IMG/VR virus record: IMGVR_UViG_3300045988_163070
Strand: one strand, 5' to 3'
Origin: a virus
DNA: 64,000 nucleotides
Shown: positions 11,317-59,348 of the stretch, piece by piece
Numbering within the stretch: the first letter of the stretch is position 1
Layout: each line of letters opens with the position of its first letter
Notes under the pieces: generated by a model
Seen by the model: only the letters and a program-made list of their open reading frames with translations
Told to the model about the DNA's origin: nothing
The model's database searches: none
Program-made: the position numbers and the translations under genes

Positions 11317-11320
11317 ACTA

Positions 11321-27303: not shown

Positions 27304-27751
27304 ATAATGGGTAATATGGAGTTCTTGGTTCTCTCCCATTACTCAAGTCAAGTGTGCGATAGTCGTTCAGAAGCTGCTTACTGAAATTAATTACACGTAA
27401 GCATGTGATTTCTGAAAACATCCCAATATGGGTATAATCAGAAGGTAGATCAAGCATTCTTGAAAGCCATGCGTAAGCTTCAGTTTTTTTCATGTAACCA
27501 AGCTCCCAAATCTTATCGAAATACTCGTGAGCTTGATGCTTCATTTTACGAAGTGGCCTTCGTGCAACTCTTCCTAATGCTCTATTAGTACCCTTGTGAA
27601 CTCCTACATATGCATCACATCCAGAACACAAATAGATCATTCCGTATGACCTTCGATAAACAACAGAACTATCGACAAACTCTGTTGGATTACCGCAATA
27701 TGGACATATCTTCCCAGCGATAATTAGTTTTTGTCTTTCGGTTAATTCCAT
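27302..27751 (-). CDS. zinc-ribbon protein (DUF3268-like)
   Basis: CPYCGNPTEF...YLCSGCDAYVGVHKGTNRALGRVA...LRKMKHQAHEYFDKIW. Confidence 0.5.
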   Translation of the reverse strand: MELTERQKLIIAGKICPYCGNPTEFVDSSVVYRRSYGMIYLCSGCDAYVGVHKGTNRALGRVARRPLRKMKHQAHEYFDKIWELGYMKKTEAYAWLSRMLDLPSDYTHIGMFSEITCLRVINFSKQLLNDYRTLDLSNGREPRTPYYPL

Positions 27752-27767
27752 AATAATACATTAATTG

Positions 27768-27850
27768 TGGACGGTAGAGGAATCGAACCCCTCCCACTCG
27801 TTTTGAATTGGTTGCGCAACACGAAGCTCTAACCGATAAGCTAACCGTCC
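27768..27850 (-). tRNA. tRNA-like gene with normal acceptor, D and T arms but a 10-12 nt insertion in the anticodon arm
   Basis: RNA GGACGGT-TA-GCTT..GAGC...AGGGG-TTCGATT-CCTCT-ACCGTCC-A. Between the stem halves TTCGT/ACGAG lie 19 nt (GTTGCGCAAC CA ATTCAAA). The last 7 nt would form a loop with U33 and anticodon UCA. Confidence 0.5.
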
Positions 27851-28192: not shown

Positions 28193-28324
28193 TGCCAAGA
28201 GACGGATTCGAACCGCCGACCTCTGCTTGTGGTGCTCTCCCGTTGAGCTAAGAGTATTTCTTGAGAGACTCGAACTCCCAACCTTCCACCACACACAGCG
28301 CTCTATCCACTGAGCTATCCAAGC
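28193..28324 (-). ncRNA. composite double tRNA-like element: two D arms and two T arms, no complete anticodon arm, halves joined by a 12-position helix
   Basis: 5-prime unit: GCTTGGA-TA-GCTCAGTGGATAGAGC...GGGAG-TTCGAGT-CTCTC. 3-prime unit: GCTCAACGGGAGAGC...GGCGG-TTCGAAT-CCGTC-TCTTGGC. CTGTGTGTGGTG (28287-28298) pairs with CACCACAAGCAG (28223-28234) at 11 of 12 positions. The outermost ends pair at 6 of 7 positions. Confidence 0.45.
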
Positions 28325-32645: not shown

Positions 32646-32758
32646 TGAATTTCCAATAACTATGAACTATTTTTTACTTAAAATATACTTTCTCCATTTA
32701 TTTTCTTTCTGTATTAATTTGACGATTTACGCAATTCACAAAATTTTCATTTAACTTG

Positions 32759-32833
32759 AAGTGATGGGCGGACTCGAACCGCCGACCTCATGCATATTAA
32801 GACATGCGCTCTAACCAACTGAGCTACACCACC
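32759..32833 (-). tRNA. tRNA with an apparent 8-nt anticodon loop (CUUAAUAU); identity undetermined
   Basis: GGTGGTG-TA-GCTCAGTTGGTTAGAGC-G-CATGT-CTTAATAT-GCATG-AGGTC-GGCGG-TTCGAGT-CCGCC-CATCACT. All four stems pair, but the best anticodon stem leaves 8 loop nucleotides. Confidence 0.7.
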
Positions 32834-35034: not shown

Positions 35035-35502
35035 ATGACATATTTTAGAGAAGCCAAACCTGTTGATAATAAAGTTTATCCACTAACTATTACAGCAGAA
35101 GAAAAAGACAAAATATTAAATGCAATATTAGCTGCAGCTAATGGTAGTGCAACTGCCAATATTGATTATGATGATATCTCAAACATTGAAATTAGTAAGG
35201 ATCAATACGAAATGGTACTGAAAGAGTTCAAGAAGAAAGGACTAATTGATTATATAGGATATGGTACTGAGAACCTTACGATAAATTCTGAAATTTCAAA
35301 TTTCGCAGAAAAAGGTGGTTTTACAGTTGAAAGAGATTTATATACAATCAACTTTGATGTACTTGAATTGCAACTTAAGCGATTAGAGAAAGAATTGAGT
35401 CCAGATACGACTGCAAAAGTTAATAGCGTTATCAAAAAAGCTAAAAACATAACCGAACTCATAGCTGGACTCGCAACTTTAGTAGATAGAATAAACCTTT
35501 AA
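35035..35502 (+). CDS. hypothetical protein
   Basis: 155-aa ORF; no motif recognised. Confidence 0.5.
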   Translation: MTYFREAKPVDNKVYPLTITAEEKDKILNAILAAANGSATANIDYDDISNIEISKDQYEMVLKEFKKKGLIDYIGYGTENLTINSEISNFAEKGGFTVERDLYTINFDVLELQLKRLEKELSPDTTAKVNSVIKKAKNITELIAGLATLVDRINL

Positions 35503-35858: not shown

Positions 35859-36178
35859 ATATAATATTTAAAACAATATATAACATGAAACACGAAAATC
35901 TTGATAGTACATAAAAAAGTTTATTTCCGTATTCTTGTCGGAAACGTCTTTATATAATTGGAAATCTATTCAAAATCAAAACAGTACAATGGTTATTAAA
36001 TAATTAGTCTAGTTTAGTTTTTGTGTTGAGTCGGAAGCCTGCAAGCGAGCATGAGCTTCCGGCTTTCTTTTTGCTGTAATTCAGCAAGTTACATTCACAA
36101 TCGAACTTTTTTTATATCTATTAGTAGCCCATATTAGAGAATTAAAACAAATCATAATGTCACTTTTGACGCTATATA

Positions 36179-36207
36179 ATGGTCGAAAAATGGTCGGATT
36201 ATGGTCG
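36179..36207 (+). promoter_or_regulatory. three phased ATGGTCG direct repeats just upstream of the integrase gene
   Basis: ATGGTCG at 36179, 36190 and 36201 (11-bp phasing), 34 nt before the int ATG. Confidence 0.5.
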
Positions 36208-36240
36208 GAAAACATGATACGATCGAAAACAGAATAAAGT

Positions 36241-37419
36241 ATGGCTACATTTTCATTGGTAATTGTCCCAGCTAAAAAACTATCAGACGGGACACATAAA
36301 ATAAGAATCAGAGTAGCACATAACTCTGATACAAGATTCATCACAACAGAAATTGTCGTTCGTGAAAACGAATTTAAGAACGGAAAGATAGTCCAACGCC
36401 CAGACAAAGATTTCCTCAACATAAAATTGCAGGAATGGTATAACACGTACTTCAAACGCTATATAGAATTAGAGCATGCAGAATCGTTAACTTGCGCCCA
36501 ATTAGTTAAGATGATAACAAACCCTATTAATGGCGAACGTAATCGCAAATTTGAGGATATCGTTGAAGAATTCCTCTCACAGATCGATGAGGATGATAGA
36601 GAAAAAACGCATAAACTTTATAAATTGGCCGCTAAACATTTTATTCGGTTTACTGGTCCAAGTACACTCATGGAACACATAACACCAATCCGGATTAATA
36701 ACTATCTAACGCATTTAAGGAAGAGCAAACTCTCTCCTACCTCAATCAAAATCTATATTACACTATTGAAAGTGATAATAAACTATGCCATCAAGATGAG
36801 ATACGTAGAATATAAGGTAGATCCATTTGTCACAGCTTCCATTCCTTCAGCTAAGAAAAGAGACACACATATCACAGTTGAACAACTAAAGATTATTAGA
36901 GATATGGTACCTAATCAATATAACGTATCAGTAGTTCGCGACATTTTCATGCTTACTTATTATTTAGCCGGCATGAACTTAGTTGATATGCTGGCTTACG
37001 ACTTCCGGACCGACATTGTAGATTACATCAGAATCAAGACAAGGAATACTAAAGATGGTGACCGGTTGACTTCGTTTGCGATTCCTGATGAAGCAAAACC
37101 TCTCATCAAGAAATATATGAATAAGAATACCGGAAAGCTCGTATTTGGAAAGTATAAAACCTATGTATCCTGTTATAATACACTCACCCGGAAAATGAAA
37201 GTTCTGAAAACAGTAGCAGGCGTTACTCACAACTTAACATTATATTCAGCTCGCAAATCATTCGTTCAACATGGATACGACTTGGGAATTCCTCTTAGCA
37301 CATTAGAATACTGTATCGGTCAGTCAATGAAAGAAGATCGTCCAATCTTCAATTATGTATCAATCATGAAAAAGCATGCTGATAAAGCGATACGCGAGAT
37401 ACTTGATAATCTGAAATAA
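36241..37419 (+). CDS. int: tyrosine recombinase / phage integrase (Bacteroides type with N-terminal arm-binding domain)
   Basis: N-terminus FSLVIVPAKKLSDGTHKIRIRVAHNSDTRFITTEIVV (arm-binding-type), a SAM-like middle region, and the C-terminal LTLYSARKSFVQHGYDLGIPLSTLEYCIGQS...IFNY catalytic region. Confidence 0.85.
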   Translation: MATFSLVIVPAKKLSDGTHKIRIRVAHNSDTRFITTEIVVRENEFKNGKIVQRPDKDFLNIKLQEWYNTYFKRYIELEHAESLTCAQLVKMITNPINGERNRKFEDIVEEFLSQIDEDDREKTHKLYKLAAKHFIRFTGPSTLMEHITPIRINNYLTHLRKSKLSPTSIKIYITLLKVIINYAIKMRYVEYKVDPFVTASIPSAKKRDTHITVEQLKIIRDMVPNQYNVSVVRDIFMLTYYLAGMNLVDMLAYDFRTDIVDYIRIKTRNTKDGDRLTSFAIPDEAKPLIKKYMNKNTGKLVFGKYKTYVSCYNTLTRKMKVLKTVAGVTHNLTLYSARKSFVQHGYDLGIPLSTLEYCIGQSMKEDRPIFNYVSIMKKHADKAIREILDNLK

Positions 37420-37644: not shown

Positions 37645-38136
37645 TTACTTCTCTATCAGTTCATTAGCTTCAAGTAATTCCTGTGCATCTTCCTTTAGAT
37701 ATATAGGAATAGAAACAATAATATCTTTCACACCAATATATTGGGCTAACACAGTACGATGTCTCCCATCAGAAATAATGAAAGATTTATTTTGTGATAT
37801 GTCCCACATAGGTGGATCAACACATTCTTTATTCAACCATCTCTCTATAGTATTGGCAAATCTGGACTCATCGTGCCAAAATCCATCAAATTTTTTATTA
37901 AAGACCACATCATATAAATTGGTTGAATTCTTTATTAATTTATCAACATTACATTGCATAAAAATCCTATTTGAATACATAGGATGATTAATAGGTAGTT
38001 CCATTTTACGAACATCAGTTGCCCAAACAGGAACAATACTGTTCAATTCATCATCACTCATTTTTCGACATTTATTCCTTAATAAAATATCTTCTTCATC
38101 TAAATCTTCATCATCTGTTTTTTTCCAATCTTCCAT
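37645..38136 (-). CDS. hypothetical protein with ParB/Srx-like DGRHR motif
   Basis: SFIISDGRHRTVLAQYIGVKDIIVSIPIY resembles the ParB/sulfiredoxin-fold core. The N-terminus is acidic. Confidence 0.45.
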   Translation of the reverse strand: MEDWKKTDDEDLDEEDILLRNKCRKMSDDELNSIVPVWATDVRKMELPINHPMYSNRIFMQCNVDKLIKNSTNLYDVVFNKKFDGFWHDESRFANTIERWLNKECVDPPMWDISQNKSFIISDGRHRTVLAQYIGVKDIIVSIPIYLKEDAQELLEANELIEK

Positions 38137-40591: not shown

Positions 40592-40622
40592 AAATAAAAA
40601 AGGTAGTCGAAAACCGGCTACC
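40592..40622 (-). terminator. intrinsic terminator ending the DGR operon
   Basis: 8-bp hairpin GGTAGCCG-guuuu-CGACTACC on the minus strand (plus 40602-40622), followed by TTTTTTATTT. Confidence 0.7.
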
Positions 40623-40647
40623 TTACATCTATCTATTAAGAAGAGAC

Positions 40648-41130
40648 TTATTGATATAAACTTAGATCAACAGCATCTTTCTTTTTCCAACCAGCAGCTA
40701 ATGTGCGCTGAACAAAAACCATTTCCTTAGTATAAAAGTCCGTCAGATTTTCCAAGGTATTAAATTCATAGTAGACAGGTTCATCATCTGTTCCAAATTT
40801 AAATCTTACTGGTAAAGAGGTACCGTCTGTCTGCACTGCAAGATCATAGGCTGATTTATAATTGAACTGGTTTTCCTGTGATAACCATACAGGTATGCCA
40901 TTATAGGTAAATCCGGACATGATCTCGTTATTTATCTCCTGATTATACCAGTTAATAACCATAACCTTTACCTCCTCACTGGTAGGCTTATAAGAGAACT
41001 CCTCTTCCATATAGGAAGCATTTCCCTCTTGCTCACTTGGCTGTACATCCCAACGTACACGCCACTTATTTTTCACCGGATTTACACACTCAAAGAGCGA
41101 TACACCGGAACTTCCTTCTACTCGTTTCAT
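40648..41130 (-). CDS. hypothetical protein translationally coupled to the DGR RT (possibly DUF4376/XkdW-like)
   Basis: Its ATG overlaps the RT stop (TAATG). GFTYNGIPVWLSQENQFNYKSAYDLA loosely resembles DUF4376 tail-associated proteins. Confidence 0.4.
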   Translation of the reverse strand: MKRVEGSSGVSLFECVNPVKNKWRVRWDVQPSEQEGNASYMEEEFSYKPTSEEVKVMVINWYNQEINNEIMSGFTYNGIPVWLSQENQFNYKSAYDLAVQTDGTSLPVRFKFGTDDEPVYYEFNTLENLTDFYTKEMVFVQRTLAAGWKKKDAVDLSLYQ

Positions 41131-42446
41131 TAGCTAAATACATATTTTGTTCGACCTTTACCGAACGTCTCCGTCTTAATCGTTGTTTCAAACGGAAAAC
41201 CATCCGGCATACTTGAAATTTGTTGGAGGATATTTTTCATTTCCTCCGAATTGGTGAAGAACTTCTTCATTTCACCATTTTGCTCAATTGAGACAATACA
41301 ACGGTCTTCTCCCTGCTCTGTTTTAATACCCATTTCATAATCTTTCACTATGATAGGGAGATTTACCAATTCTCTTATGGAAACAACTGTGCCTGGAAAA
41401 CGCTTCTTCCCGTCTTCCGGCTTGTAAGTGACGTTTAAATCTTTGAAACTTTTCATTTTTATGCCTGTTAATTTATAAAATAGATTCTTGCAATCGGCAT
41501 GCTTTACCAAGCCATAAAAAGAGGCAATGAGTTCTTTACGACGTCTACGGCTTTTCACTTTATGAAGCCTACGAGCAAAGTTCTGTTTGTTCCTTTTGCG
41601 TACACGGGTATGATCCGGATAAATAACGAAGCCTAAGAAATCAATACCTTGCTTGGTTGGAAATACACGTTCAATCTTTTTAATCACAAGATTTATCTTA
41701 GCCACCTGCAGACACACAATATTACGCATCTTCCAAAGAACTTTTTTGCTCCCATTCAAAACACGCCCGTCGTCACAATACCGGAAATAGTGCTTCACGC
41801 CTTCCCGGTCCTTCAGGACATGGTCGATAAAAATGGATAACAGAAGATTACCAAGCCCCTGCGAACTTCTTAATCCTATGCTTATTCCCTTTTGCATCAC
41901 GTCCACGAATCCGGAAAGTAGCTGAATGAGCTTATTATCCTTAAACACCTTATTAACACAGTATTTCATAAAATCATGATCAACATTCTCATAAAATTTA
42001 CGAATATCAAAAGTGTAACAGAACTCTGTTCCTTGTGCATCATTCCCTATCGAATCACGTACATAACATAATAGATCGTGTGTACCACGTCCTTTTATAG
42101 ATGCAGATGTAGTCCGGATAAAACGACCTCGCAAATGTTCATCTACAACTTTCATAATTGCATGCACAGCAACCCGTTCTTTCAAAGAAAAAATTTGGAT
42201 GCGACGTAGTTTACCACCTTCAAAGACCTCCTTTTCAAAAAAATTACTAACTTTAAAACTGCCATTACGAATCCTTTCTGTCAATTCGTCAATGACTTCT
42301 TTTTTATGCGCAATAAGAGTTCTCCCTGAACGGCTGCGTTTACGTTTCCGACCTCGCAACACTGTCCAGAAAGACTCTTCCATATTTTCAGGAGTTATTA
42401 TCTCCTCAATGATATTGCCTTCTCTACGCATAATTTTTGCCTTCAA
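41130..42446 (-). CDS. DGR-type reverse transcriptase
   Basis: RT motifs ISIGLRSSQGLGNLL (the I/LGxxxSQ hallmark of DGR RTs) and FRYCDDGRVL (YxDD). The likely true start is ATG 42429-42431 (MRREGN...); the listed start is a TTG. Confidence 0.85.
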   Translation of the reverse strand: MKAKIMRREGNIIEEIITPENMEESFWTVLRGRKRKRSRSGRTLIAHKKEVIDELTERIRNGSFKVSNFFEKEVFEGGKLRRIQIFSLKERVAVHAIMKVVDEHLRGRFIRTTSASIKGRGTHDLLCYVRDSIGNDAQGTEFCYTFDIRKFYENVDHDFMKYCVNKVFKDNKLIQLLSGFVDVMQKGISIGLRSSQGLGNLLLSIFIDHVLKDREGVKHYFRYCDDGRVLNGSKKVLWKMRNIVCLQVAKINLVIKKIERVFPTKQGIDFLGFVIYPDHTRVRKRNKQNFARRLHKVKSRRRRKELIASFYGLVKHADCKNLFYKLTGIKMKSFKDLNVTYKPEDGKKRFPGTVVSIRELVNLPIIVKDYEMGIKTEQGEDRCIVSIEQNGEMKKFFTNSEEMKNILQQISSMPDGFPFETTIKTETFGKGRTKYVFS

Positions 42447-42651
42447 CTTTCTGGGCCCAACTTCTTCGAGAATCCCAATAAAGGGAAACCTACCAAACTC
42501 TACCCAACGATGTATGTTTCAGTTTTCCAGTCTTGCGACTGCTGTTACTGAGGCTCATCCCCCTCGGCTCAATGATGAGTAACTCGTACTCCTTATCGTA
42601 CGCCGATTAATTTCTTCAGGCACTAACGTCCAAATTCGTTTAAATTGTTTC

Positions 42652-42762
42652 CGAGCCGGGAACCGTTGTTCGCAGACGCATTCGATGAATCGTTACCGCA
42701 ATTCGCATACGAGACACCGCCGTTCGGGTTCGCGTTGTTGTTCGACCGAAAGACCACACGAG
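42652..42762 (-). repeat. DGR template repeat (TR)
   Basis: 111 nt, 105/111 identical to 43004-43114. The sense strand is rich in AAC/AAT codons (AAC AAC AAC GCG AAC CCG AAC GGC...). Confidence 0.85.
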
Positions 42763-42790
42763 TCTATGGGGGAATCCACCTACGGGGGTA

Positions 42791-42820
42791 CAAAATTAAC
42801 AATTTATTCATCTTGACAAA
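42791..42820 (-). promoter_or_regulatory. Bacteroides-type promoter driving the TR-RT transcript
   Basis: Minus strand TTTG (plus 42817-42820), 18 nt, then TAATTTTG (plus 42791-42798), about 30 nt upstream of the TR. Confidence 0.55.
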
Positions 42821-42843
42821 AGATTAAGTAAGTTATATTTTCG

Positions 42844-42891
42844 CCGGGCTTCGCCCGGATTTGTGCCGTTCGGGAAGAGCAGCACAAATCC
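42844..42891 (-). promoter_or_regulatory. two adjacent GC-rich hairpins just downstream of the fibre gene stop (terminator and/or DGR target-recognition structure)
   Basis: CCGGGC-ttc-GCCCGG (42844-42858) and GGATTTGTGC-N15-GCACAAATCC (42857-42891). Confidence 0.5.
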
Positions 42892-42935
42892 GAACATGGC
42901 TAAACGTTTTCCGATTTAGTCGCTTCGCTCCCGCT

Positions 42936-45900
42936 TTACGATTCCGATTTCAACGATTTGTACGCTTCAACGCTCTCCGCGACCTCGATTTGACCGCGGA
43001 AGGCGAGCCGGGAACCGTAGTTCGCAGACGCATTCGATGAATCGTAACCGCAATTCGGATACGAGACACCGCCGGGCGGGTTCGCGTTGCTGTTCGACCG
43101 AAAGACCACACGAGAAGCTGCTGCGCTCGGTTGGAATTCATCACAATAATAGGTTGTACTACTACCAGCCTGTGAAAAAGCAGCAATCACATCACAATAT
43201 TTTTGATGAACCATACCAGTTGCAAAACCACCGGTTGTACCGGAACGAACTTTACGTACCGTACCGTCAGGCATCTCAATATTTAACTTATACTGCTCTT
43301 GTGCATTAGTATTAGGTAAACCAACTTTATCCATCCATTCATATTTGTCACCATACCAACTTTCATAACCCATACAGTTACTTGAAGGAATACGAGTATG
43401 AACTATTCTACCATCGGCATCCTTTGAGATATACCAAGAATATTCAGTTTTATGCACACCATCTGAATCATAGCTTACAGTATCCTGCATACCGATTACG
43501 GCAGTAGTTCCGACTATCCGGTTATTTGTATTTTGACCATAACCGCATTGATCTTGTGCATCACGACGACCATATGCTGCATAGAACAAGTTAGCTACAT
43601 CTTTGTGCATCTCCCAGTCCACAAGTTGCAAATTACGTTGTTGTGCATAATAGTGAAAATCGGATTGAGACATACTACCAACACTTGCAGAAGTATTAAA
43701 AGCAGAATAAAGAGAATTACCAATAGAGATTGCTTCACCGACACCTGTCAGACAAGGCAGGTGTTCAACCCAATCCGGCTCCATATCCTCAATCTTGTCA
43801 CTGTTGGATAATACAACAAGGTCAAATTCTGCGTTATTGAAGATCGTGAAATAAAGGAAAGCAGCTCTTTCCGGAACGTCTGCAATAAGATACATTCCTT
43901 CAGCAAACTTATTGTTAAGACTCGGAACGGTCAAATCCTTTATAACATTACCGGATGCGTCTACGAAGATACTGCCAATCAAGCCGGTTCCTAACGTGGT
44001 CGGGAAACGGACACGCTTATGCTTGGAAACATCGACACCGCAAACACTATAATTCGTGTCTGAAGAATAGCTGTCCGTCAAGGTAGCACGACCAATCAGA
44101 ATCTTAGATTTCTCCTTATAAAGCCCGGATTCCCGGATATTGGAAAGATAAACTTTATCACATACCGGTATATCCGGAATTTCGGTATTGGAACTGTAAC
44201 AGGTGTACTTCTTGTTGTTAAGGTAGTCATTAATTCCTTTATACCAATAGTGAGGTTCATACATCCAAAGATCACCCTCCGTACTATCCAATTTGGCAGG
44301 AGTAGCACCGGATATTTTCTCTGAATCGGCATAATAATTAGAGTTCTCATCGTGTAGATTGCAAATCACCATTTTACCTTTCTCAGTCTGCTTACCTAAA
44401 ACACGATGACGTTTAGCCAGGATCTTAGTAATATGTCCGTTGGCTACATAGCTGTTACCGTATTTATAGCCGGTCAGATTGTCGAGGTTGCTGATATTAG
44501 CATCATCGGCAACAGTGTCATCAAACTCAATCATCGTATATTTAGGCTGAATGATGGTCAGCTCCGGGAAATGAGCAACGGCTGCTTCATATTCTTCATC
44601 AGTCATGGAACGGGTAAGACGATAGGTTCCCACCAGGCGACAGGAAGATACATTACCGCCATTCTCATCAACACCTCCCATTTCCATAAGGTTTCTAATC
44701 AGCGTACCGTCTCCTTCCATATCAATACCAGTAATACGAAGGTATCTGACAGCCGGACACGCTGTGAGCAGTCTTTGCCAGTCGATCAGTGCGCAACTAT
44801 CGACAACAAGGCGATTAGTATTAACCGTACCCTCTAATGTCAGATTGTCGTTAGATAATTTGTTCAAGTATCGTAATTCAAGCGTCTGAAGAGTAGCAGG
44901 AAGAACAGCAACGGACAAGGGAGAACCAGGTGCAAAAGATACTCCCGTTAATGCAGATTTACCAGCACGGAAAGTCTCAAGTTTGGAATTTGAAGATAAA
45001 TCCATAGAAGTAAAGTTTTCACTTTGCAACCCGGTAAGGTTCAACTCACGCAGATTCTTACACTTGTCAACTAAAAGTGCGTTCATGGTCTTTTGCGTAG
45101 CCGAACAACTGATATTCAAAACTCGCAATGCTACGCAATTGCTTAGATTTAGAGTACCGACAATAGCATGGCTAACATTAGTCAGATCAAGACCTAACAT
45201 ACGGGATGCACCGTAGAAGTATTGAGGATCATTGACTATCAAATCCGTGTCGAGCGTCAGTTCGACAATACTGCCGGCATCTTCAGCGAGCACACCACTT
45301 TGTTTCGGTTCGCCGGACGTGTACCCATAGCCGAAGTAATAACGTTCGCTGGCGGTTATCTTAACCTTACGCTTATCAGTAGAGAACTTATAACCAAAAT
45401 AGATAGGGAATGAATCCTGTCGGTATGTACCTGCAAGATATTGGCTATCCAAAAGAGCAAAACGGTTTTGGATCGTGAATGTACGGTGAGCGTAACGACT
45501 ACCTTGAAGGGCGTACAGGTAGTCATAGTATTTTGTACCCTCCGAAGTCGTAACACCCTCTGTTAAAGGCTTGATATACTTGTATTCTCCGTCCTTATTA
45601 TAAATCCTCTCGCACCAATTACCCATCAGTTGGTTATTGAAGATATCAAGTACATACTCGGTGCTCATATTACTACGGATATTCCCGGCAACTTCCTGCA
45701 ATTTCTCCGGCCAAGAGCGGACAAGTTTCCAAAGTATGGAGTCGTGACCGGCCATTGCATAGGAGCCAATAGAATCATCAAAGGTTTCCCATGTCATAGT
45801 ATAGTCATACTTCAGTACGGAGTCATTACGTCCGCCTAAAATCGTATCCATGTCATAAGGAAGAATATACCAGTGAACACCGTCCCAAGTGCAGAACATC

Positions 45901-48900
45901 ATGTTCTTTGCCCGGCTGTCAACAGCCATCAAATAGTCAGTGATTATGTACCAACCGAACAAGCTGTTTACATTAAAGTAATCGGCACATTCTGCACGGA
46001 ACCGGGCGGGGTCATTTTTTACCGAATTAATCCATGTCCAAAGGCGGGTTACAGCGTCTTTATCCTCTTGGTCGGCATCTTCCCATGTCTTATCCGGCTT
46101 AAAACGGAATTCCAAACCGTCAGCGAAGTTTTCAGCAGTTATGTTGGAAGTACCGAAGAGGCACAACGGATGAGAATTGTTCAAGAACTCAAGGCAGATA
46201 CATTTGTTACGGTCGCCATTCAAAGCGGCTAAATCATTGAATCCGGCAATACCTTCAAAACCGTAGACATTGTGAGAATCGCTCTTTTCGTTATTGAAAT
46301 TGTACTTACCCAAATAGGTATTTACACCGGTATTATCATTATCGTAGAACAAGTCCATCGGAAAACCATCAACACCGATACGAACACTGCCGTCTATTTC
46401 CTGTGGGGGTGTCAGCCAGCCACATTTCTTCCATGTGTCATTGACCAGTCTCACACCACCAGTATTGTGCGTTGATGATGAGTCGGAGAAATCAGCCTTC
46501 AAACAGAAAATACCCACACGTTTGGCGCCGGGTTTGAATGAATACATCAAGTCCGGAACATCGACACCATTCACTTCCAAAGTCGTTCCATATTTATCGA
46601 AACGTTCAAAGTAGATACGGTAGTTCTTTCGCGGATAGGTAGTAGACGATGTACCCTGTATCCGAAGTCCTGCATTACGAAGTACAAAATCATACTCCTT
46701 GCCATATGCAGAATAGAAATACACGTCAACAGGCACTTCAAACTTTTTGTTGTTCGTTGCATTAACAAGTTCGACATCACCAACAAAGCGCATGACAGAT
46801 TTACCTTGTACACGAAGCTTTTCTATATCCACATCCGAGCCGTCGTCATTCATAACATCGTTTTTCTGGAATAGAACAACCATTTCCTCTGATGTCGGAC
46901 GGTCTACCATGTAGTTGGTCAGCTCTTCATCATCAGTCAGACCACGCCGGTAGATACGCAAATTGCGCAACTCGATATCGGCTGCATCGGAAGATACAGT
47001 AATATTTACCGGAGCTTCCTGCTTCATACTTTCAGTCTGTGAGTACTGTTTCGCACCACAACGGATACCATTTACGTACAATTCTATCAAACGAGTACCG
47101 GACTTCTTGCCGATAACGAAAGCTATTTTCAGATTCAGATCGGAAGCAAAAAGTGTATTGACAGAACTTCCTCCGGAAGCGGTTATTTTCGCTTCCTGTG
47201 TTGTCATCTGGAATCCTATTCCACCGGACATACACGAAAGAATGACACCGTTACGATCAGTTACATTCGAACACTTCAATTCAAATTCATACGTAGCACC
47301 GTTCGATACGGCATCATTGGCAAGGGGTTGTTTAAGAATCTCTATTGTAGCTCCATTAGTTAACTGCAAAGAGTCACCAGTCCAACCATTACTATTCCAA
47401 TCAAACCCGGTAAACTTGGTTGTTACCTCGCCATCAGTCCAAACTGCCGGATTTTCTTCGGTGTTACTACGACCGGCAGCCGAAAGTTTTAAATCAAGGT
47501 CTGCTTGTACTTCCTCGATATCAATAGAGGATTTTGCAACGTGGACTAAGAAATCATATTCAGTGTTGCCGCAAGAGAACCGCATTGCATACTCTCCCTG
47601 CTCGGTGAACCGGTTTGTATATACCTGAACGGTACGCGGCACACTTACTGTCTGTGTTTTGGTGCCATTGTTGTACACGGACATTTCAGCAGGGGTTTTG
47701 CTCGGATCGTAAACAACAAAATCGAATTGCAGTTTCTCATATTGACCGACTTCAAGGCGTGGTGTCAAATGATCATCCGTAAAGATGCGGCCGTCCGGGA
47801 AGCGATGCATCATGCCGATACTGGGAGCAGAAGAACCCTCTTTGAATATATCCAAGTAGATACTTTCAGAGCGAACGGTAAGATCGGCAGAAGCTTCCAT
47901 TTCAGCAACCATCTGCACGGTATGCCGACCAGGTAAAAGGTCAGACATGGAAATACTGAAGCTGCTGTTCGTTTGCCCGGATTTAGTAATAGTCTTGGAG
48001 TCTTTCTGAACACCATCAACATACAACATGACAACTTTGTTGCCTGTTCCCGAAATGGTGAACGGAATGGATGCAGTTGCACCGGCTGCATAGCCGCCAA
48101 CAGGAGAAGCAATGTTATAAGTAGAACTCAAAGATAACGTAATAACTTTGACGGACGTGTATGCCTGTTTAGTCTGCTTCTTGCCTTCCGGATCGGTAGT
48201 TGTTGCCTTTACATAGATATCCGTTGTTCCCAAAAGCAAATACTTACTCAAATCAAGGGTATATGTACCCTTAGATACATCGTTAATAGTCTCTGTGTAC
48301 ACAGTTTGAGCACCTCGAAGCATCTGTATGGTAAGCGTAGCTTTCTGCCCAGTAGATTCGCCCTTGTCATCTCCGGAACTATATTGGTGATCGTAGAAAT
48401 AGGTAAGATGAGAAGAACCACCCTCTTTGATAATGCTGTTATCTACCGAAGCATTGAGGACAATCTTTGTTGCAGTACCGGTTTCTCCGCCGCCACCGCC
48501 TGTACCGCCTTGAAATTCCGTACTGGCTATTTCTGCACCGGACTTGTTTTTCAAACTTAGCTTAACAGTATTATTATCCTCGTCAACCTCGGATTCGAGT
48601 GTGAAAACAGTATTGGCTTCAATCTCATTAAATTTAGCAGTTACAGGAGCGTTCTGAATGGCATTTGTTGAGTTGGCATCCAAACTTTCATCTGTTTGAG
48701 GAATTTCGACATTGAAAGATACACCACCACTTTCATCCGGAGTATGCTTTTCACCGTTGAAAGTAATTTCTTTCACAGCTCCTGCACCACCGTATTCATT
48801 CCAAGCAGCCGGCTGATCGAAAGCTGTTATGTCGTTTGATTCAAAACGATAATCTTTCCATTTCCCAGCAGACTCCTCGAAAGTAATAATCATGCCGGGC

Positions 48901-50501
48901 TTCTCTTCATCCTTGACTTTAGCTCCAGAAACGGCTGTTACTGCTGTTTCTTTTGTATAGAAGCCAGTATTTAAAGGATGAAGTTTAGTTACGTTATAAA
49001 AGCCACTACCTGAACCGGAACCACCGGAGATTTCTTCCCACTCACTCCACTTCTCACCTGTCATCTTACGTTGTTTCAACACACCACCGGTATAATACGT
49101 AGACAGGAAGATTTGGGTAATGGCATCATCCTCACCGTACCGGGACACAACTAAAATATCACTTGAATAAGTGTCTGCATCAGCCACAATATAATAGCCG
49201 GAGTTAACAACAGAATCAATATCAGTATAAAGGACTGTATTGAAAAAATGAAGCATATCTATATTTGACAGATTCTTGTAGAAATCCTCTTCAGTACCCT
49301 TATACCCTTTGCCTTTTGCATCTTCATAGGTATTAACCTCATTCCATGAGTCCGGTACATAATCACTGCCGACATATACATAAGTATGATATTTACCTAC
49401 TTTATCTAAGAATGAACATTTGATACCAATGTTCCTTAGCTCAATAGGAACAAGGTATATAGCCTTATCTAATGTGAATCTGTTTGTATTATCACTCGGA
49501 TCGACATGATATAAAGATACATTATAGTCAGTAACGCTCGTTATTCTCCAACTACCCCACTCTCCGTTTTTTCGCTGTCTCTGATATACGAACCCACACT
49601 CATAGCGTATTTGTTCATAAATGTTCTCATCAAGTATCGTAGTAGCCAAAAGACCTTTTATATCCTTGAATTCATTTCGTTCATCTTCATTATACCGATA
49701 AGTAAACAAGCCGGCAGTACCAAACACCTCATCTAAATCTCTTAGATCGTTCAAGAAATCCAAGTCTATAACAATACTACCACAAACATTTATGGCTGCC
49801 AATAGTTTTTTCAATTCTCCCCAAACAGAGCCATCATCACTTTTAGATGTCTCTTTTGTTCCAAGAGCTTCCTGTAATTTAGCTTCGGTTGACATCCATT
49901 TCCCCCAAGTTGTGTTACCACTGGAAACAACACCACTCCGGGACAAAGTAATAACCGGTCCTACGGTTACTTCAGTAGCCGTACTGTTATTCATTGCATC
50001 AAGTTGGATGCACGATGTAAACGACTGATAAACATTATTGAGTCCCAACCGCTCTACTTGAATATTGAGAGGAATACTGGTAGAACCAGGCGCAAATACA
50101 CAACGGTAATTTCCAACAGAGGAATTACCTTCATATAAAGAATTGAGTTTTGATTTTAAGTTAGCCAGTGAATCAATCGTACCCAAACTTTTAAAAGGAT
50201 CAGTAAGAGGATTTGATTTTGTTGAAGTGCCTAATATCCTTTTCAACAGTTCAGCATCTCCTTCAGTTATACTCTTCTCTGCATCTGTAATACGATTCTT
50301 AAAATCCTCCAAATCTTTATTAATATAAGCGGATATAGCGTCAGTTAAATCCTGTACCAATATTTTCCGCCCACCACTAATCTCAACATACATATCATCA
50401 GACAAAGATTTCACGGCAGTAAGCTGCTCTATCGTGAAACTATTTGTCTTTAACGCTTGCAGCACAAGGCTGACAATCTGCTGTTTCTCCGTTTCTGTCA
50501 T
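42936..50501 (-). CDS. giant multidomain tail fibre / receptor-binding protein, DGR target
   Basis: 2521 aa. CotH-like segment (GLRIQGTSSTTYPRKNYRIYFERF...CLKADFSDSSSTHNTGG), leucine-rich repeats (LDLTNVSHAIVGTLNLSNCVALRVLNIS...LRELNLTGL...), and a C-terminal VR-encoded VVFRSNSNANPPGGVSYPNCGYDSSNASANYGSRLAFRG typical of C-type-lectin-fold DGR targets. Confidence 0.8.
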   Translation of the reverse strand: MTETEKQQIVSLVLQALKTNSFTIEQLTAVKSLSDDMYVEISGGRKILVQDLTDAISAYINKDLEDFKNRITDAEKSITEGDAELLKRILGTSTKSNPLTDPFKSLGTIDSLANLKSKLNSLYEGNSSVGNYRCVFAPGSTSIPLNIQVERLGLNNVYQSFTSCIQLDAMNNSTATEVTVGPVITLSRSGVVSSGNTTWGKWMSTEAKLQEALGTKETSKSDDGSVWGELKKLLAAINVCGSIVIDLDFLNDLRDLDEVFGTAGLFTYRYNEDERNEFKDIKGLLATTILDENIYEQIRYECGFVYQRQRKNGEWGSWRITSVTDYNVSLYHVDPSDNTNRFTLDKAIYLVPIELRNIGIKCSFLDKVGKYHTYVYVGSDYVPDSWNEVNTYEDAKGKGYKGTEEDFYKNLSNIDMLHFFNTVLYTDIDSVVNSGYYIVADADTYSSDILVVSRYGEDDAITQIFLSTYYTGGVLKQRKMTGEKWSEWEEISGGSGSGSGFYNVTKLHPLNTGFYTKETAVTAVSGAKVKDEEKPGMIITFEESAGKWKDYRFESNDITAFDQPAAWNEYGGAGAVKEITFNGEKHTPDESGGVSFNVEIPQTDESLDANSTNAIQNAPVTAKFNEIEANTVFTLESEVDEDNNTVKLSLKNKSGAEIASTEFQGGTGGGGGETGTATKIVLNASVDNSIIKEGGSSHLTYFYDHQYSSGDDKGESTGQKATLTIQMLRGAQTVYTETINDVSKGTYTLDLSKYLLLGTTDIYVKATTTDPEGKKQTKQAYTSVKVITLSLSSTYNIASPVGGYAAGATASIPFTISGTGNKVVMLYVDGVQKDSKTITKSGQTNSSFSISMSDLLPGRHTVQMVAEMEASADLTVRSESIYLDIFKEGSSAPSIGMMHRFPDGRIFTDDHLTPRLEVGQYEKLQFDFVVYDPSKTPAEMSVYNNGTKTQTVSVPRTVQVYTNRFTEQGEYAMRFSCGNTEYDFLVHVAKSSIDIEEVQADLDLKLSAAGRSNTEENPAVWTDGEVTTKFTGFDWNSNGWTGDSLQLTNGATIEILKQPLANDAVSNGATYEFELKCSNVTDRNGVILSCMSGGIGFQMTTQEAKITASGGSSVNTLFASDLNLKIAFVIGKKSGTRLIELYVNGIRCGAKQYSQTESMKQEAPVNITVSSDAADIELRNLRIYRRGLTDDEELTNYMVDRPTSEEMVVLFQKNDVMNDDGSDVDIEKLRVQGKSVMRFVGDVELVNATNNKKFEVPVDVYFYSAYGKEYDFVLRNAGLRIQGTSSTTYPRKNYRIYFERFDKYGTTLEVNGVDVPDLMYSFKPGAKRVGIFCLKADFSDSSSTHNTGGVRLVNDTWKKCGWLTPPQEIDGSVRIGVDGFPMDLFYDNDNTGVNTYLGKYNFNNEKSDSHNVYGFEGIAGFNDLAALNGDRNKCICLEFLNNSHPLCLFGTSNITAENFADGLEFRFKPDKTWEDADQEDKDAVTRLWTWINSVKNDPARFRAECADYFNVNSLFGWYIITDYLMAVDSRAKNMMFCTWDGVHWYILPYDMDTILGGRNDSVLKYDYTMTWETFDDSIGSYAMAGHDSILWKLVRSWPEKLQEVAGNIRSNMSTEYVLDIFNNQLMGNWCERIYNKDGEYKYIKPLTEGVTTSEGTKYYDYLYALQGSRYAHRTFTIQNRFALLDSQYLAGTYRQDSFPIYFGYKFSTDKRKVKITASERYYFGYGYTSGEPKQSGVLAEDAGSIVELTLDTDLIVNDPQYFYGASRMLGLDLTNVSHAIVGTLNLSNCVALRVLNISCSATQKTMNALLVDKCKNLRELNLTGLQSENFTSMDLSSNSKLETFRAGKSALTGVSFAPGSPLSVAVLPATLQTLELRYLNKLSNDNLTLEGTVNTNRLVVDSCALIDWQRLLTACPAVRYLRITGIDMEGDGTLIRNLMEMGGVDENGGNVSSCRLVGTYRLTRSMTDEEYEAAVAHFPELTIIQPKYTMIEFDDTVADDANISNLDNLTGYKYGNSYVANGHITKILAKRHRVLGKQTEKGKMVICNLHDENSNYYADSEKISGATPAKLDSTEGDLWMYEPHYWYKGINDYLNNKKYTCYSSNTEIPDIPVCDKVYLSNIRESGLYKEKSKILIGRATLTDSYSSDTNYSVCGVDVSKHKRVRFPTTLGTGLIGSIFVDASGNVIKDLTVPSLNNKFAEGMYLIADVPERAAFLYFTIFNNAEFDLVVLSNSDKIEDMEPDWVEHLPCLTGVGEAISIGNSLYSAFNTSASVGSMSQSDFHYYAQQRNLQLVDWEMHKDVANLFYAAYGRRDAQDQCGYGQNTNNRIVGTTAVIGMQDTVSYDSDGVHKTEYSWYISKDADGRIVHTRIPSSNCMGYESWYGDKYEWMDKVGLPNTNAQEQYKLNIEMPDGTVRKVRSGTTGGFATGMVHQKYCDVIAAFSQAGSSTTYYCDEFQPSAAASRVVFRSNSNANPPGGVSYPNCGYDSSNASANYGSRLAFRGQIEVAESVEAYKSLKSES
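43004..43114 (-). repeat. DGR variable repeat (VR) at the 3-prime end of the fibre gene
   Basis: Differs from the TR at 6 positions. Five correspond to TR adenines on the sense strand (plus-strand TR 42667, 42694, 42723, 42724, 42738) and one to a G (42706). They change AAC codons to AGC, CCC, TAC and TAC. Confidence 0.85.
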
Positions 50502-50523: not shown

Positions 50524-50961
50524 CTAATCATTATCATATACCCACGTTAACTCAATGGTCATACCAATATTATCAATATCATAGTCATACATGTAATCAA
50601 GATAAAGCTGGAATTCTTTTCCGGTACCTACATCTCCGGCATCTACTCCCTTTAAAATATAGACTCCATCTCTACTAACTACACTACCCTCAATAAGATT
50701 ACTATATGGACCACCTGTGTATAGAATGGCACGTAAATTTATCAAACTGTCATCCAAAGAACTTTTCAAGCTATCAAGTCCGGTTATCACCAGTTTACCA
50801 TAACCTTTCCTGCCAATATACTTACTGTCTATGTCAGTAGTCTTAATGGTGATTAAATCCCAATATGATTGTTCATCACCGCCCGGATGATGAATACTGT
50901 TCACTGTGATCATTGTATCACTGTTGATAGAAGTGCCAGTATTTGGAGTAGCATTAGACAT
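50524..50961 (-). CDS. tail/baseplate-associated hypothetical protein
   Basis: 145-aa ORF immediately upstream of the fibre gene. Confidence 0.45.
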   Translation of the reverse strand: MSNATPNTGTSINSDTMITVNSIHHPGGDEQSYWDLITIKTTDIDSKYIGRKGYGKLVITGLDSLKSSLDDSLINLRAILYTGGPYSNLIEGSVVSRDGVYILKGVDAGDVGTGKEFQLYLDYMYDYDIDNIGMTIELTWVYDND

Positions 50962-50984: not shown

Positions 50985-51839
50985 CTACAGGTTTTCTGTA
51001 CCAAATTTGATACTACGCATATCCCCAGTATCCGTTTTTCTGTAATTATCACCTTGTACACGTCTCATCGCAACCTGATTATTCCATTCCAAAACAGGAT
51101 CAAGCGATTTTATCTGCTGTAACTGCTGATTGAAGACAAAGCTTTTCAATCCCTCGATTTCTTGATTCAATTCAGGAACACCACCGTCTTTTCTTGCATA
51201 ACGTACACCATCAAAATAGATATAGTTACAGCATAGAATACGGTTAAGAAAGTCAGCAAACCACACTGGGCAACCAATAGAATTACCTAAAGTAAATATC
51301 TTCTGTGTAGCTTCACGGCTATACAATTCTACGATATCACCATCAGCAGTGGTAAACTGTTCGTTATCTACTGTGAATGACCAGTTATTATCTTTGAATC
51401 CACCGGGGGCACGGAAATCGAAGAAATATTGCATACCATCAATCCAAAAGATACAATCCGTCCGTTGTCGGTTATCTTTCATTGAATACTGTATTACAGT
51501 AGTCTCATTAAGTTCGGCACTATCATTCGTAACTTTGAATATCTCACTCCAGGAATCACCAATTAACACATCGTAGTAACCGCTATTCAGCCCTGTAATA
51601 ATGTGAAAGTAGATTATCTGATTATTATTCATATTCCATGTGTGCCACTCAATAGAATCCTGACGTTCATTAATTAAATCTCGTACAACCAAGGCAGGCA
51701 CTGCATCTGATTTGTCACCTATCAACTCAATGAATATGATATCAGAGCTTGCAAATTTCTGAATGTATTTACTCTTCGCACCGAACCGGTCCGTAGTAGG
51801 GTTAAAAAACAAAGGGGTAAAAGGACTTATTTTCAACAT
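50985..51839 (-). CDS. tail/baseplate-associated hypothetical protein
   Basis: 284-aa ORF in the tail operon. Confidence 0.45.
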   Translation of the reverse strand: MLKISPFTPLFFNPTTDRFGAKSKYIQKFASSDIIFIELIGDKSDAVPALVVRDLINERQDSIEWHTWNMNNNQIIYFHIITGLNSGYYDVLIGDSWSEIFKVTNDSAELNETTVIQYSMKDNRQRTDCIFWIDGMQYFFDFRAPGGFKDNNWSFTVDNEQFTTADGDIVELYSREATQKIFTLGNSIGCPVWFADFLNRILCCNYIYFDGVRYARKDGGVPELNQEIEGLKSFVFNQQLQQIKSLDPVLEWNNQVAMRRVQGDNYRKTDTGDMRSIKFGTENL

Positions 51840-56735: not shown

Positions 56736-56951
56736 TTAAAAATTGGGGTTCTCTAATGCTTCTGTAAGTTCTTCTTCAGTAATGCTCTCACAGATGTTTG
56801 AATCATCTATGTAAACATTATATCCAGTCTCATTGCGAGACACTTCCAATACACGAACTTCACCGGTTGGTGATTCTACTCTATAAATTGTTTTCATATT
56901 TTCTGAAATTAAAAGGTTAGAACATAGTATCATCACACACAATAGCGTCAC
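56736..56951 (-). CDS. hypothetical small protein
   Basis: 71-aa ORF. Confidence 0.35.
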   Translation of the reverse strand: MTLLCVMILCSNLLISENMKTIYRVESPTGEVRVLEVSRNETGYNVYIDDSNICESITEEELTEALENPNF

Positions 56952-57192
56952 CGGCTATATAATCATCGGGAAAAATAGCACTATTCATTAATGCAATCCG
57001 AGTAGCCTCAACATTCAACTCAAAGTGGAATTTACCCTCCTCATTCATTATCATTATTTTATTAGGGCAAATATCAATGACTTGAACATAGCCATTTACT
57101 AAACTCTGCGCTTCTTTTAGGGTAAAGCAGTTCCCATTCACCGGAGAAATCTCAACTGTTTCTCCGGTAACTTTCAACAAAGTGGCTTTCAT
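56917..57192 (-). CDS. DUF3846-like protein
   Basis: KVTGETVEISPVNGNCFTLKEAQSLVNGYVQVIDI...MIMNEEGKF...N..AT fits my recollection of DUF3846. Confidence 0.45.
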   Translation of the reverse strand: MKATLLKVTGETVEISPVNGNCFTLKEAQSLVNGYVQVIDICPNKIMIMNEEGKFHFELNVEATRIALMNSAIFPDDYIAGDAIVCDDTMF

Positions 57193-57452: not shown

Positions 57453-57785
57453 TCAATACACGGTTACAAGATTCTCAATTTTGAAGCTTCTAAACTCCTG
57501 CTTATCAACATCGAAGTAAGAGAAAGTCTTATAAGAAGGCTTTGTCATACGTTTACCCTTGTTTGTCGCACCTGCAGGCACATTTTTAAGAGTGCCGATA
57601 GCATAACGAATACTGCCATTCACTTTCTCATAGGCGAATTTAACTTCACCGCTTCTCATTCTTTTAGCAAGTCTGTAAAGCTCCCACGCTTTTAGCAGAC
57701 AATATTTCCAACTCTTTTTTGTTGTTGAAAGGAGGTGATGAGCATACTTCATCACTCTGGCTCTAAAATTAGACTTTGTTTCCAT
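57453..57785 (-). CDS. DUF2693-like (SH3-like barrel) protein
   Basis: EVKFAYEKVNGSIRYAIGTLKNVP...TFSYFDVDKQEFRSFKIENL resembles DUF2693, which is common in Bacteroides phages. Confidence 0.45.
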   Translation of the reverse strand: METKSNFRARVMKYAHHLLSTTKKSWKYCLLKAWELYRLAKRMRSGEVKFAYEKVNGSIRYAIGTLKNVPAGATNKGKRMTKPSYKTFSYFDVDKQEFRSFKIENLVTVY

Positions 57786-57912: not shown

Positions 57913-58386
57913 TTAATAATCAAGTTCTTGATATAACATCTTCCGACCAAATGAAATGCGGCTTCGGACTGTTCCAGTCGGGACATTCAACAGTTCACTT
58001 ATTTCGTCATAGGAATATCCCTGGGCACAATATATTAAGCTATCCATACAACATGATTTTTGGGCACACCGGCGAATGGCAGACACAACATCATTAAACA
58101 TTGCCAAATTAGAAGCATAATCAGAAGAAGCATTTTCAACTGCTGAATCATATCCAATAAAATGTATGAGAGAATTTCTATTGTACTGCGTAATATAAGT
58201 ATTCTGCATGACAGCAAGGCACCACGGTTTCAAAGGTTTTGATACATCGAACTTATCACGATTTATAAGCATTTTGTACACCGTGTCACCGGCTAAATCT
58301 TCTGCATCCTGCATAGATCGGCAGAATCTTTTCGCTACACGTAATATCCAGGGATATATTTCTGATACTTCCTTTTCAAAGTCCAT
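57913..58386 (-). CDS. ECF-type sigma-70 family sigma factor
   Basis: Region 2-like AEDLAGDTVYKMLINRDKFDVSKPLKPWCLAVMQNTYITQYNR and region 4-like YSYDEISELLNVPTGTVRSRISFGRKML. Confidence 0.75.
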   Translation of the reverse strand: MDFEKEVSEIYPWILRVAKRFCRSMQDAEDLAGDTVYKMLINRDKFDVSKPLKPWCLAVMQNTYITQYNRNSLIHFIGYDSAVENASSDYASNLAMFNDVVSAIRRCAQKSCCMDSLIYCAQGYSYDEISELLNVPTGTVRSRISFGRKMLYQELDY

Positions 58387-58769: not shown

Positions 58770-59348
58770 TTACGTCCTTTTCTTCTTCATGCTTATCTCT
58801 ACATCTGCCTGATGGACGATGTTTGCATAAACAGCAGCATTTATGTTCCGGACATCAATATTCATTTTAAAAAAAGTCATAAGAAAAGCTATTTCAGCAT
58901 CAAAAGAAGAACGTATCTGTTCCGGAGTAGCTTTTTCTTTCTTCTCATCAGAACGCATATCATCGCTTCTCTTTTGCTCAAATAAAGCAGATCGCAACAA
59001 TTCTTCAACTTTAGACTTAACTTGTTCATCAGACATGGATTTCGTATCATATGATAACAAAGCCAAAGTCTCCCGGACATCTTCATAAGCATCAATAGCA
59101 ATCAGAGAAATACAAACTTTAAAAAGCAAAACACGTGCCCTCTCTTTTATCATATCCTCACGATCAACTAACACAGATTTCAATCCGGACGGATTAGTTA
59201 TCTTCTTGTACTCTATTATCAAATCAGATGAACGTTTCTTTAATTCCATCTCATTAATATCCTCATCTGGTGAAAGTAATACGGAGCAATCACCACATGA
59301 AAGCTCTATAAAATCATATAGAGATAATTGGTTCAATCTTTCAATCAT
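58770..59348 (-). CDS. hypothetical protein following the tape measure
   Basis: 192-aa ORF overlapping the tape-measure stop by 4 nt. Confidence 0.45.
   Translation of the reverse strand: MIERLNQLSLYDFIELSCGDCSVLLSPDEDINEMELKKRSSDLIIEYKKITNPSGLKSVLVDREDMIKERARVLLFKVCISLIAIDAYEDVRETLALLSYDTKSMSDEQVKSKVEELLRSALFEQKRSDDMRSDEKKEKATPEQIRSSFDAEIAFLMTFFKMNIDVRNINAAVYANIVHQADVEISMKKKRT

Follow-up and report, generated by a model that had tools for sequence, protein, structure and literature searches.

The window analysed here is the whole stretch of 64,000 nucleotides (nt) of DNA of the IMG/VR virus record IMGVR_UViG_3300045988_163070. On its minus strand, which is the gene strand throughout the cassette region and the coding strand on which all base changes are given, it carries a giant tail-fibre-like gene ending in a variable repeat (VR), a template repeat (TR), a structured RNA of the RT-3 family, a reverse transcriptase (RT) gene and a small gene of the DUF4376 family. 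A sequence-only reading had taken this locus for a diversity-generating retroelement (DGR) that rewrites the C-terminus of a giant tail fibre by mutagenic homing. The geometry of the TR/VR pair, the family of the RT, the adenine-only variation of the VR and the fold of the target all support a DGR at this locus.

Organization of the cassette

A repeat search of the window returned a single two-copy direct repeat of 111 nt with 95% identity, at the same coordinates as those first proposed (Table 1), and no third TR-like copy was found within the window. TR and VR agree at 105 of 111 positions. As the sequence-only reading had described, five of the six differences fall on TR adenines in AAC codons and the sixth is a non-adenine change, G>C, which replaces an alanine by a proline. 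The probability that at least five of six differences hit an A by chance is 0.0014 (hypergeometric, TR with 23 A in 111 nt). Between the end of the VR and the stop codon of the target gene there are 68 nt, and the theoretical repertoire of the TR amounts to 7e13 DNA and 9e12 peptide variants.

The RT open reading frame (ORF), 41130-42446, opens with a TTG at 42446, and the ATG at 42431 is likely to be the true start. The protein carries the two motifs that had been noticed at first sight, IGLRSSQ at amino acids (aa) 190-196 and YCDD at aa 223-226, which correspond to the [I/L/V]GxxxSQ form of motif 4 and to the YxDD box of DGR-clade RTs. A tblastn search of deposited phages matched it to Bacteroides phage p00 (hankyphage) and relatives, with 66-68% identity over 99% of its length, and also to Bordetella phages. 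By BLASTP the protein is colinear with the RT of phage BPP-1 (bRT) over 324 residues (25% identity, E 5e-24), the alignment pairing IGSLTSQ with IGLRSSQ and YMDD with YCDD. Together with scores below the group II, retron and Drt cut-offs, given further on, these matches place the enzyme among DGR RTs, a grouping that had been set as a test of the initial proposal. The top PDB sequence match was a 328-aa RT, 8ub7 (E 4.8e-19), followed by group II intron and retron RTs. No NCBIfam model named the RT, the target or the DUF4376 protein. The RT extends for ~110 C-terminal residues (aa ~325-433) past the end of bRT; aa 331-436 match phrog_19665, a PHROG of unknown function, and the extension had no PDB sequence match.

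Two strong stem-loops, found by folding 42830-43020, follow the stop codon of the target gene and are likely to form a terminator that parts the fibre transcript from the TR transcript. They have no T-run and were not called by a terminator consensus scan; such a sigma-70/terminator scan is uninformative for a Bacteroides promoter or a terminator without T-run. Downstream of them, ~25-30 nt upstream of the TR, stands the TTTG-N18-TAATTTTG site pointed out in the sequence-only reading (TTTG at 42820-42817, TAATTTTG at 42798-42791). Both boxes are identical in seven relatives that are 88-94% identical overall. The site resembles the -33/-7 promoter consensus of Bacteroides and is a putative promoter of that type. 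At the other end of the TR, homology with the VR ceases after an A-free, GC-rich stretch of 14 nt, CGGTTCCCGGCTCG. This boundary is present as first described, while the role suggested for it, as the site of initiation of mutagenic homing (IMH), makes it a candidate by analogy with BPP-1.

The RT-3 motif fills the spacer between TR and RT. Hankyphage (146.6 bits), Bacteroides phage BS-TP4 (74.5 bits) and the relatives of the window phage have it in this spacer too, and its helices show compensatory changes in hankyphage and in one of these relatives (L008). The motifs RT-1 to RT-19 were described beside RT genes by Weinberg et al.; in BPP-1 they located RT-10 between TR and RT, and they speculated that further members of the series serve other DGRs (PMC5737381). 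RT-3 evidently does so and, by analogy with RT-10 and the spacer RNA of BPP-1, is probably a DGR spacer RNA that recruits or primes the RT.

The last 250 aa of the target were modelled with AlphaFold2, with a predicted local distance difference test (pLDDT) of 83.5. Foldseek placed TaqVP of Thermus aquaticus (5VF4) first (E 7.5e-4, probability 1.0), followed by FGE/EgtB-type folds and Mtd, in line with the C-type lectin fold that the sequence-only reading expected there. The VR sits at the 3' end of the target gene, inside a domain whose model suggests the C-type-lectin (FGE-like) variant that DGR targets typically have. Unlike this domain, which would be the tip of a giant fibre, TaqVP is small and stands alone. 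A PDB sequence search with the target C-terminus gave nothing useful.

Table 1. Features of the DGR cassette and of other regions of the window. Base changes are given on the coding strand.
Feature	Position	Strand	Source or remark
Giant tail-fibre-like gene, DGR target (2521 aa)	42936-50501	-	ORF list
Laminin_G_3 domain	target aa 1064-1192		Pfam
CotH-like domain, partial	target aa 1474-1573		Pfam
Predicted C-type-lectin/FGE-like variable domain	target C-terminus		AlphaFold2 model
VR	43004-43114	-	encodes aa ~2463-2499 of the 2521-aa target ORF
Candidate IMH, CGGTTCCCGGCTCG	43004-43017	-	A-free, GC-rich 14-nt 3' end of VR, common to TR; homology ends after it
Candidate target-recognition element	42936-43003	-	conserved 68 nt from VR to stop codon; alignment, DNA fold
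Two strong stem-loops, likely terminator	42841-42894	-	after target stop; fold of 42830-43020
Promoter-like site, TTTG-N18-TAATTTTG	42791-42820	-	upstream of TR
TR	42652-42762	-	intergenic, upstream of RT ORF; 23 adenines, 10 AAY codons
TR>VR change A>G	42738/43090	-	AAC codon, N>S
TR>VR changes A>C and A>C	42724-42723/43076-43075	-	AAC codon, N>P
TR>VR change G>C	42706/43058	-	GCG to CCG, A>P
TR>VR change A>T	42694/43046	-	AAC codon, N>Y
TR>VR change A>T	42667/43019	-	AAC codon, N>Y
RT-3 RNA motif (Rfam RF03068)	42452-42608	-	130.1 bits, E 6e-31
DGR RT	41130-42431	-	433 aa from ATG; Pfam RVT_1, PHROG 1423
DUF4376 protein (160 aa)	40648-41130	-	start codon overlaps RT stop; marginal Pfam match
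Split tail gene (284 + 145 aa)	50985-51839 and 50524-50961	-	directly upstream of the giant fibre gene
ECF-type sigma factor (Sigma70_r2/r4; PHROG "RNA polymerase sigma factor")	one of the small genes 57913-58386, 57453-57785, 56917-57192	-	
ZorA2	7164-8753	+	PADLOC, 811 bits
ZorB2	8756-9457	+	PADLOC, 275 bits
ZorE2 HNH nuclease	9463-10299	+	PADLOC, 410 bits
TET-associated glycosyltransferase (TAGT) match	14635-15387	-	Pfam; replication arm
Genes near TAGT	SSB 25022-25495, VRR_NUC 21620-22102, DUF3268 27302-27751, HNH genes		
tRNA-like genes (three)	27767-27850, 28193-28324, 32758-32833	-	ARAGORN/Rfam

Variation of the VR among related genomes

For scanning, N was put in the TR at each adenine and at the single deviating G, and this pattern recovered eight IMG/VR contigs. 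In seven of them two matches lay 352 nt apart, as in the window, and the eighth was cut by the end of the contig. These relatives are 88-94% identical to the window over 6.4 kb, and variable columns were counted from an alignment built on BLAST coordinates, which is independent of the search pattern. Across the eight phages, 19 of the 23 VR columns at TR adenines were variable, against 1 of 88 at other bases; in the TR itself a single column of 111 varied, while the regions that flank the TR showed 9-19% of variable columns (18.9% in the target gene upstream of the VR, 12.2% in the TR-RT spacer and 11.4% in the RT gene). Information thus appears to flow one way, from a nearly invariant TR to a VR that varies.

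The 68 nt between the VR and the stop codon of the target were also conserved, with 1 of 68 columns variable versus the 18.9% found upstream of the VR. DNA folding predicted a GC-rich hairpin there (~42976-43000), which starts 4 nt past the end of the homology and makes the stretch a candidate target-recognition element. The same nucleotides encode a conserved LAFRG motif, so that their conservation may partly be at the protein level, and the hankyphage sequence would fold a different hairpin at this place.

In order to remove the bias of the pattern, a second one was used in which 77 internal positions were left free and the VR-specific 3' flank was added. It recovered exactly the same seven viral contigs, together with four metagenome contigs. 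Scans of genome contigs with the TR pattern and with the RT protein gave no matches; the host was found by exact-protein look-ups, the one with the DUF4376 protein leading to six integrated prophages. Three of the six are 99.7-99.8% identical to the window over 15.1 kb. Between positions 36403 and 50995 (~14.6 kb), the sole differences between the window and one of these prophages (L016) are 10 bases of the VR, nine at TR adenines plus the private G>C of the window.

Altogether 17 distinct VRs were found in 18 related genomes. Within the 77 nt left free by the pattern, substitutions were found at 135 of 391 TR-adenine sites compared with 2 of 918 non-adenine sites (Fisher p ~4e-76), and no VR contained a stop codon. 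The TR was identical to that of the window in 13 of the 17 relatives from which it was recovered. The sequence-only reading had named variation confined to TR-adenine positions as the outcome to look for in populations, and this is what the 18 genomes display. The one non-adenine difference of the window might be held against a DGR; we rejected this argument, as the G>C change is one of two rare non-adenine changes among 137 substitutions and is no anomaly, because the other occurs elsewhere in the set (L028).

These data show that adenine-specific rewriting of the VR, with an invariant TR between near-identical genomes, has been recent and repeated. A very recent turnover of the VR is required because near-identical prophages differ only by 9-10 VR bases over ~14.6 kb. 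We conclude with high confidence that a temperate siphovirus of Bacteroides thetaiotaomicron carries, at this locus, an active DGR of the hankyphage type.

Two observations concern the TR of individual relatives. At TR index 80 (position 42682 of the window) three of them (L004, L010, L014) have a T in place of A, so that AAT becomes TAT and a tyrosine is hard-coded; a T is also found at this index in 14 of 18 VRs (the duplicate pair L007/L027 being counted twice), which suggests that selection favours tyrosine at that residue. In another prophage, 99.7% identical (L013, an ENA scaffold), the TR (locus positions 8369-8479) carries the nine adenine-site substitutions of its own VR. This is probably a collapse of the assembly, the alternative being a VR-to-TR conversion, which would erase mutable adenines.

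Target identity, activity and the question of Avd

Several points weigh against an active DGR that diversifies a receptor-binding fibre. Activity is read here from the comparison of genomes, as opposed to cDNA or VR heterogeneity within a culture. The VR of the window stays near the template state, as had been remarked from the sequence, with 5 of 23 adenines changed and a non-adenine change besides. The structural match of the variable domain to TaqVP is moderate (template modelling score 0.47, E 7.5e-4, 11% sequence identity), and the label of tail fibre draws on gene order and on a chaperone-like neighbour. Finally, Avd, a basic four-helix bundle (Pfam PF05635), is common, if not universal, in DGRs and is required by BPP-1. 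No Avd-family Pfam match was obtained in any plausible ORF of the 64-kb window, and a phmmer search with the Avd of BPP-1 against its six-frame translation gave nothing credible; these searches covered the window, and the phage head genes lie outside it.

The identity of the target comes first. The DGR may be as described and yet act on something other than a host-receptor fibre, for instance a virion-surface adhesin that binds host glycans or mucus, or a CotH-like kinase that acts on the cell. We find this unlikely but worth serious consideration. The target has no sequence match to characterised tail fibres, its PHROG families (14959 and 24896) are of unknown function, it combines a CotH-like segment with a Laminin_G_3 lectin domain, and mucus adherence was proposed for its hankyphage homologue by Benler et al. 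(PMC6199706). On the other hand, its gene occupies the distal end of the tail module, past the tape measure gene (59345-63253) and further tail genes, the hankyphage homologue has been treated as a tail fibre (PMC12135933), and the targets of viral DGRs are mostly tail proteins (PMC8144416). Moreover, the DUF4376 gene follows the TR-RT unit, and in Alteromonas phages V22 and A5 the proteins with this domain are tail-fibre chaperones, whose genes come right after those of the fibres (PMC7289586, PMC10579305). This chaperone-type neighbour is a further argument for the tail-fibre label. Of the first proposal, that a DGR targets the C-terminus of a giant tail fibre, the part on the VR and the C-terminus is thus borne out, and the word fibre follows from the position of the gene and its DUF4376 neighbour, from which a receptor-binding tail fibre is the predicted function.

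It is very unlikely that the element is a decayed DGR, formerly active and now non-working through the loss of Avd or another cause, in which the VR differences would be old polymorphisms spread by recombination. Such decay would agree with the missing Avd, with a VR that is near its template and has a non-adenine change, and with the frameshift of the neighbouring tail gene in the window copy. It is opposed by prophages that are 99.8% identical and differ only by 9-10 VR bases over ~14.6 kb. In addition, the RT ORF with its motifs, the TR, the RT-3 RNA and the promoter are all intact and conserved, and the homologous cassette of hankyphage, also without a recognised Avd, is active in culture (PMC12135933).

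An RT from some other retroelement or from a defence system (group II intron, retron, Abi/DRT), with the 111-nt repeat an unrelated duplication, has virtually no chance of being the correct reading: the matches to group II, retron and Drt models that could favour it are weak and generic, as are the PADLOC matches to defence RTs, and score far under the NCBIfam cut-offs (62.7 against 300 bits for group II, 37 against 235 for retron, 40 against 200 for Drt3a), the best matches are DGR RTs and the motif is of the SQ type, Rfam detected RT-3 alone and neither intron RNA domains nor retron msr/msd, and a plain duplication is excluded as the source because variation falls at adenine sites only across 17 VRs.

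The active DGR being retained, the gene next to the RT has to be considered. Homologues of its product carry PF14301, which supports membership of the DUF4376 family, and its isoelectric point is 4.64, versus 9.55 for the Avd of BPP-1. The AlphaFold2 model is an alpha/beta fold (pLDDT 84.6), with no Avd or other significant match among PDB structures and a non-significant, prefoldin-like similarity by Foldseek; a PDB sequence search gave nothing useful. A DUF4376 gene also follows the RT in hankyphage and in BS-TP4. By analogy with the Alteromonas phages, the product of 40648-41130 is probably a tail-fibre chaperone and not Avd, and the simplest reading of the gene order is that the TR-RT unit was inserted between a fibre gene and the gene of its chaperone.

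In records of hankyphage, the note "Avd" is attached to the ORF overlapping the stop codon of the RT. A small ORF beside the RT had been singled out by Benler et al. on the basis of its size and isoelectric point only, and the label on the DUF4376 ORF is probably a mis-annotation. We put forward, tentatively and with more doubt than confidence, that DGRs of the hankyphage type work without Avd: the ~110-aa extension of the RT (phrog_19665) and the RT-3 RNA would together take over the task that Avd has in BPP-1, which is to keep the RT on the TR-spacer RNA and to permit priming, and the gene labelled "Avd" would encode a DUF4376 chaperone that caps the diversified tip. If true, this would define a mechanistically distinct, Avd-independent lineage of DGRs that is extremely abundant in the human gut. 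It raises a testable question, namely how a DGR without Avd brings its RT to the template.

Related cassettes, phage context and proposed mechanism

Hankyphage (Bacteroides phage p00, BK010646), whose DGR activity was demonstrated experimentally in culture (PMC12135933), offers the closest comparison. It shares with the window phage a Bacteroides host, an RT that is 68% identical and the order of the whole cassette, i.e. a giant target with a C-terminal VR, the TR, RT-3, an RT of ~433 aa and a DUF4376 ORF that overlaps the RT stop. The TRs are homologous and in the same register, the sequence just past the VR, GCCTTCCGCGG, is conserved, and neither element has a recognisable Avd. In contrast, the backbones are unrelated: hankyphage is a 43-kb Mu-like transposable phage, whereas the window phage exceeds 64 kb and has a tyrosine integrase, a PBSX-type terminase and a Zorya II operon. 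The target has ~2245 aa in hankyphage versus 2521 aa in the window, the annotated repeat has 116 nt versus a TR of 111 nt with 23 A, and the small ORF that hankyphage carries between VR and TR is absent from the window. In BS-TP4 (L002), whose RT is 43% identical, a RelE toxin and XRE regulator pair (10956-11616) lies between the giant target and the RT.

The BPP-1 element (mtd-avd-TR-brt) is alike in its colinear RT with IGxxxSQ and YxDD, in its AAY-rich TR, in a VR located at the 3' end of a tail protein gene within a C-type-lectin-type fold, and in a homology that ends in a GC-rich stretch followed by a hairpin, which in the window is a predicted one. Both have a structured RNA in the TR-RT spacer, of different families (RT-10 in BPP-1, RT-3 here; PMC5737381). 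They differ in that no Avd was found in the window, the RT of the window is ~110 residues longer at the C-terminus, and its target has 2521 aa versus 381 aa for Mtd; between VR and TR, BPP-1 has avd where the window has the likely terminator and the putative promoter. A survey of more than 1,100 DGRs described, in Bacteroides, a "domain group 3" of multi-domain targets that exceed 2000 aa, with CotH-kinase-like motifs, carbohydrate-binding modules and C-terminal diversification (Macadangdang et al., 10.1101/2024.11.15.621889). The giant, CotH-containing and C-terminally diversified target of the window resembles this class, which is given in general terms, so that the comparison is one of descriptions only.

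The window phage is a temperate siphovirus, with large and small terminase, portal, protease, tape measure, an amidase with holin-like genes, a tyrosine integrase and a CI-like repressor. Chromosomes of B. thetaiotaomicron carry near-identical integrated copies beside a LytTR two-component system and an ABC/RND locus. Among INPHARED phages, megablast of 40600-45600 gave no match; the phage as a whole had none there either, its large terminase reaching at most 41% identity, and its backbone relatives are distant. The exact DUF4376 protein is present in 3606 blocks of public assemblies, on at least 1000 contigs, and the phage is therefore very common in gut metagenomes.

Homology to the integrated prophages ends at ~36006 (between 35858 and 36241), beside the integrase gene (36241-37419, plus strand), and genes across this boundary, such as 35035-35502, sit at the opposite end of the prophage in other genomes. 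The window thus spans the phage attachment site attP and represents the excised or circular form. The positions at which window and prophages differ are concentrated in 36046-36402. A putAbiC (abortive-infection) gene lies between the lysis genes and the integrase in some sister prophages (L014, 13239-14339; L018, 12617-13432), where the window has a 163-aa ORF of unknown function (37645-38136), and this interval looks like a variable moron slot. A 438-aa tail gene (phrog_26568) that immediately precedes the giant fibre gene is split in the window, where one A present in four near-identical prophages is missing at ~50996; this may reflect an error of sequencing, a slippery site or a true pseudogene.

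The strand opposite to the DGR cassette bears a complete type II Zorya anti-phage operon (7164-10299, plus strand); the island in which it lies, flanked by the terminase and replication modules, is low in GC and has a reversed GC skew. Three small genes between the tape measure and the tail/fibre genes (57913-58386, 57453-57785 and 56917-57192) encode an ECF-type sigma factor, a WYL_2 protein and a DUF3846 protein, an unusual location for regulators. The TAGT match hints at DNA hypermodification. Two of the tRNA-like genes were called by ARAGORN with unassignable four-base anticodons (tgcg, taat), and the third, of 132 nt, was found by Rfam only and may contain an insertion.

We infer the structure of the transcript, the priming by the spacer RNA and the roles of the IMH and the hairpin, and propose the following mechanism. 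A Bacteroides-type promoter would drive a transcript that holds the TR, the RT-3 spacer RNA and the RT gene, and probably the DUF4376 gene as well. The RT would copy the TR RNA into cDNA, with random bases opposite template adenines, and this cDNA would replace the VR at the 3' end of the tail-fibre-like gene, the common A-free GC-rich stretch being the 3' limit. Up to 10 asparagine codons, one tyrosine and one aspartate codon would be recoded on the ligand-binding face of the C-type-lectin-like domain, a recoding that could give no stop codons, and the outcome would be a phage population with differing receptor-binding tips.

The mechanism is a known one and the element is a clean example of it, a DGR closely related to that of hankyphage in a different and widespread phage of B. 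thetaiotaomicron. Only three things are not textbook knowledge: Avd is apparently absent, RT-3 is assigned as a DGR spacer RNA, and a DUF4376 chaperone is likely to have been labelled Avd by mistake. The cassette of the hankyphage type, with its fibre tip, TR, RT-3 RNA, RT and chaperone, has passed as a unit to a temperate phage with an unrelated backbone, and B. thetaiotaomicron, as a tractable model host, lends itself to the study of receptor switching driven by DGRs in the gut.

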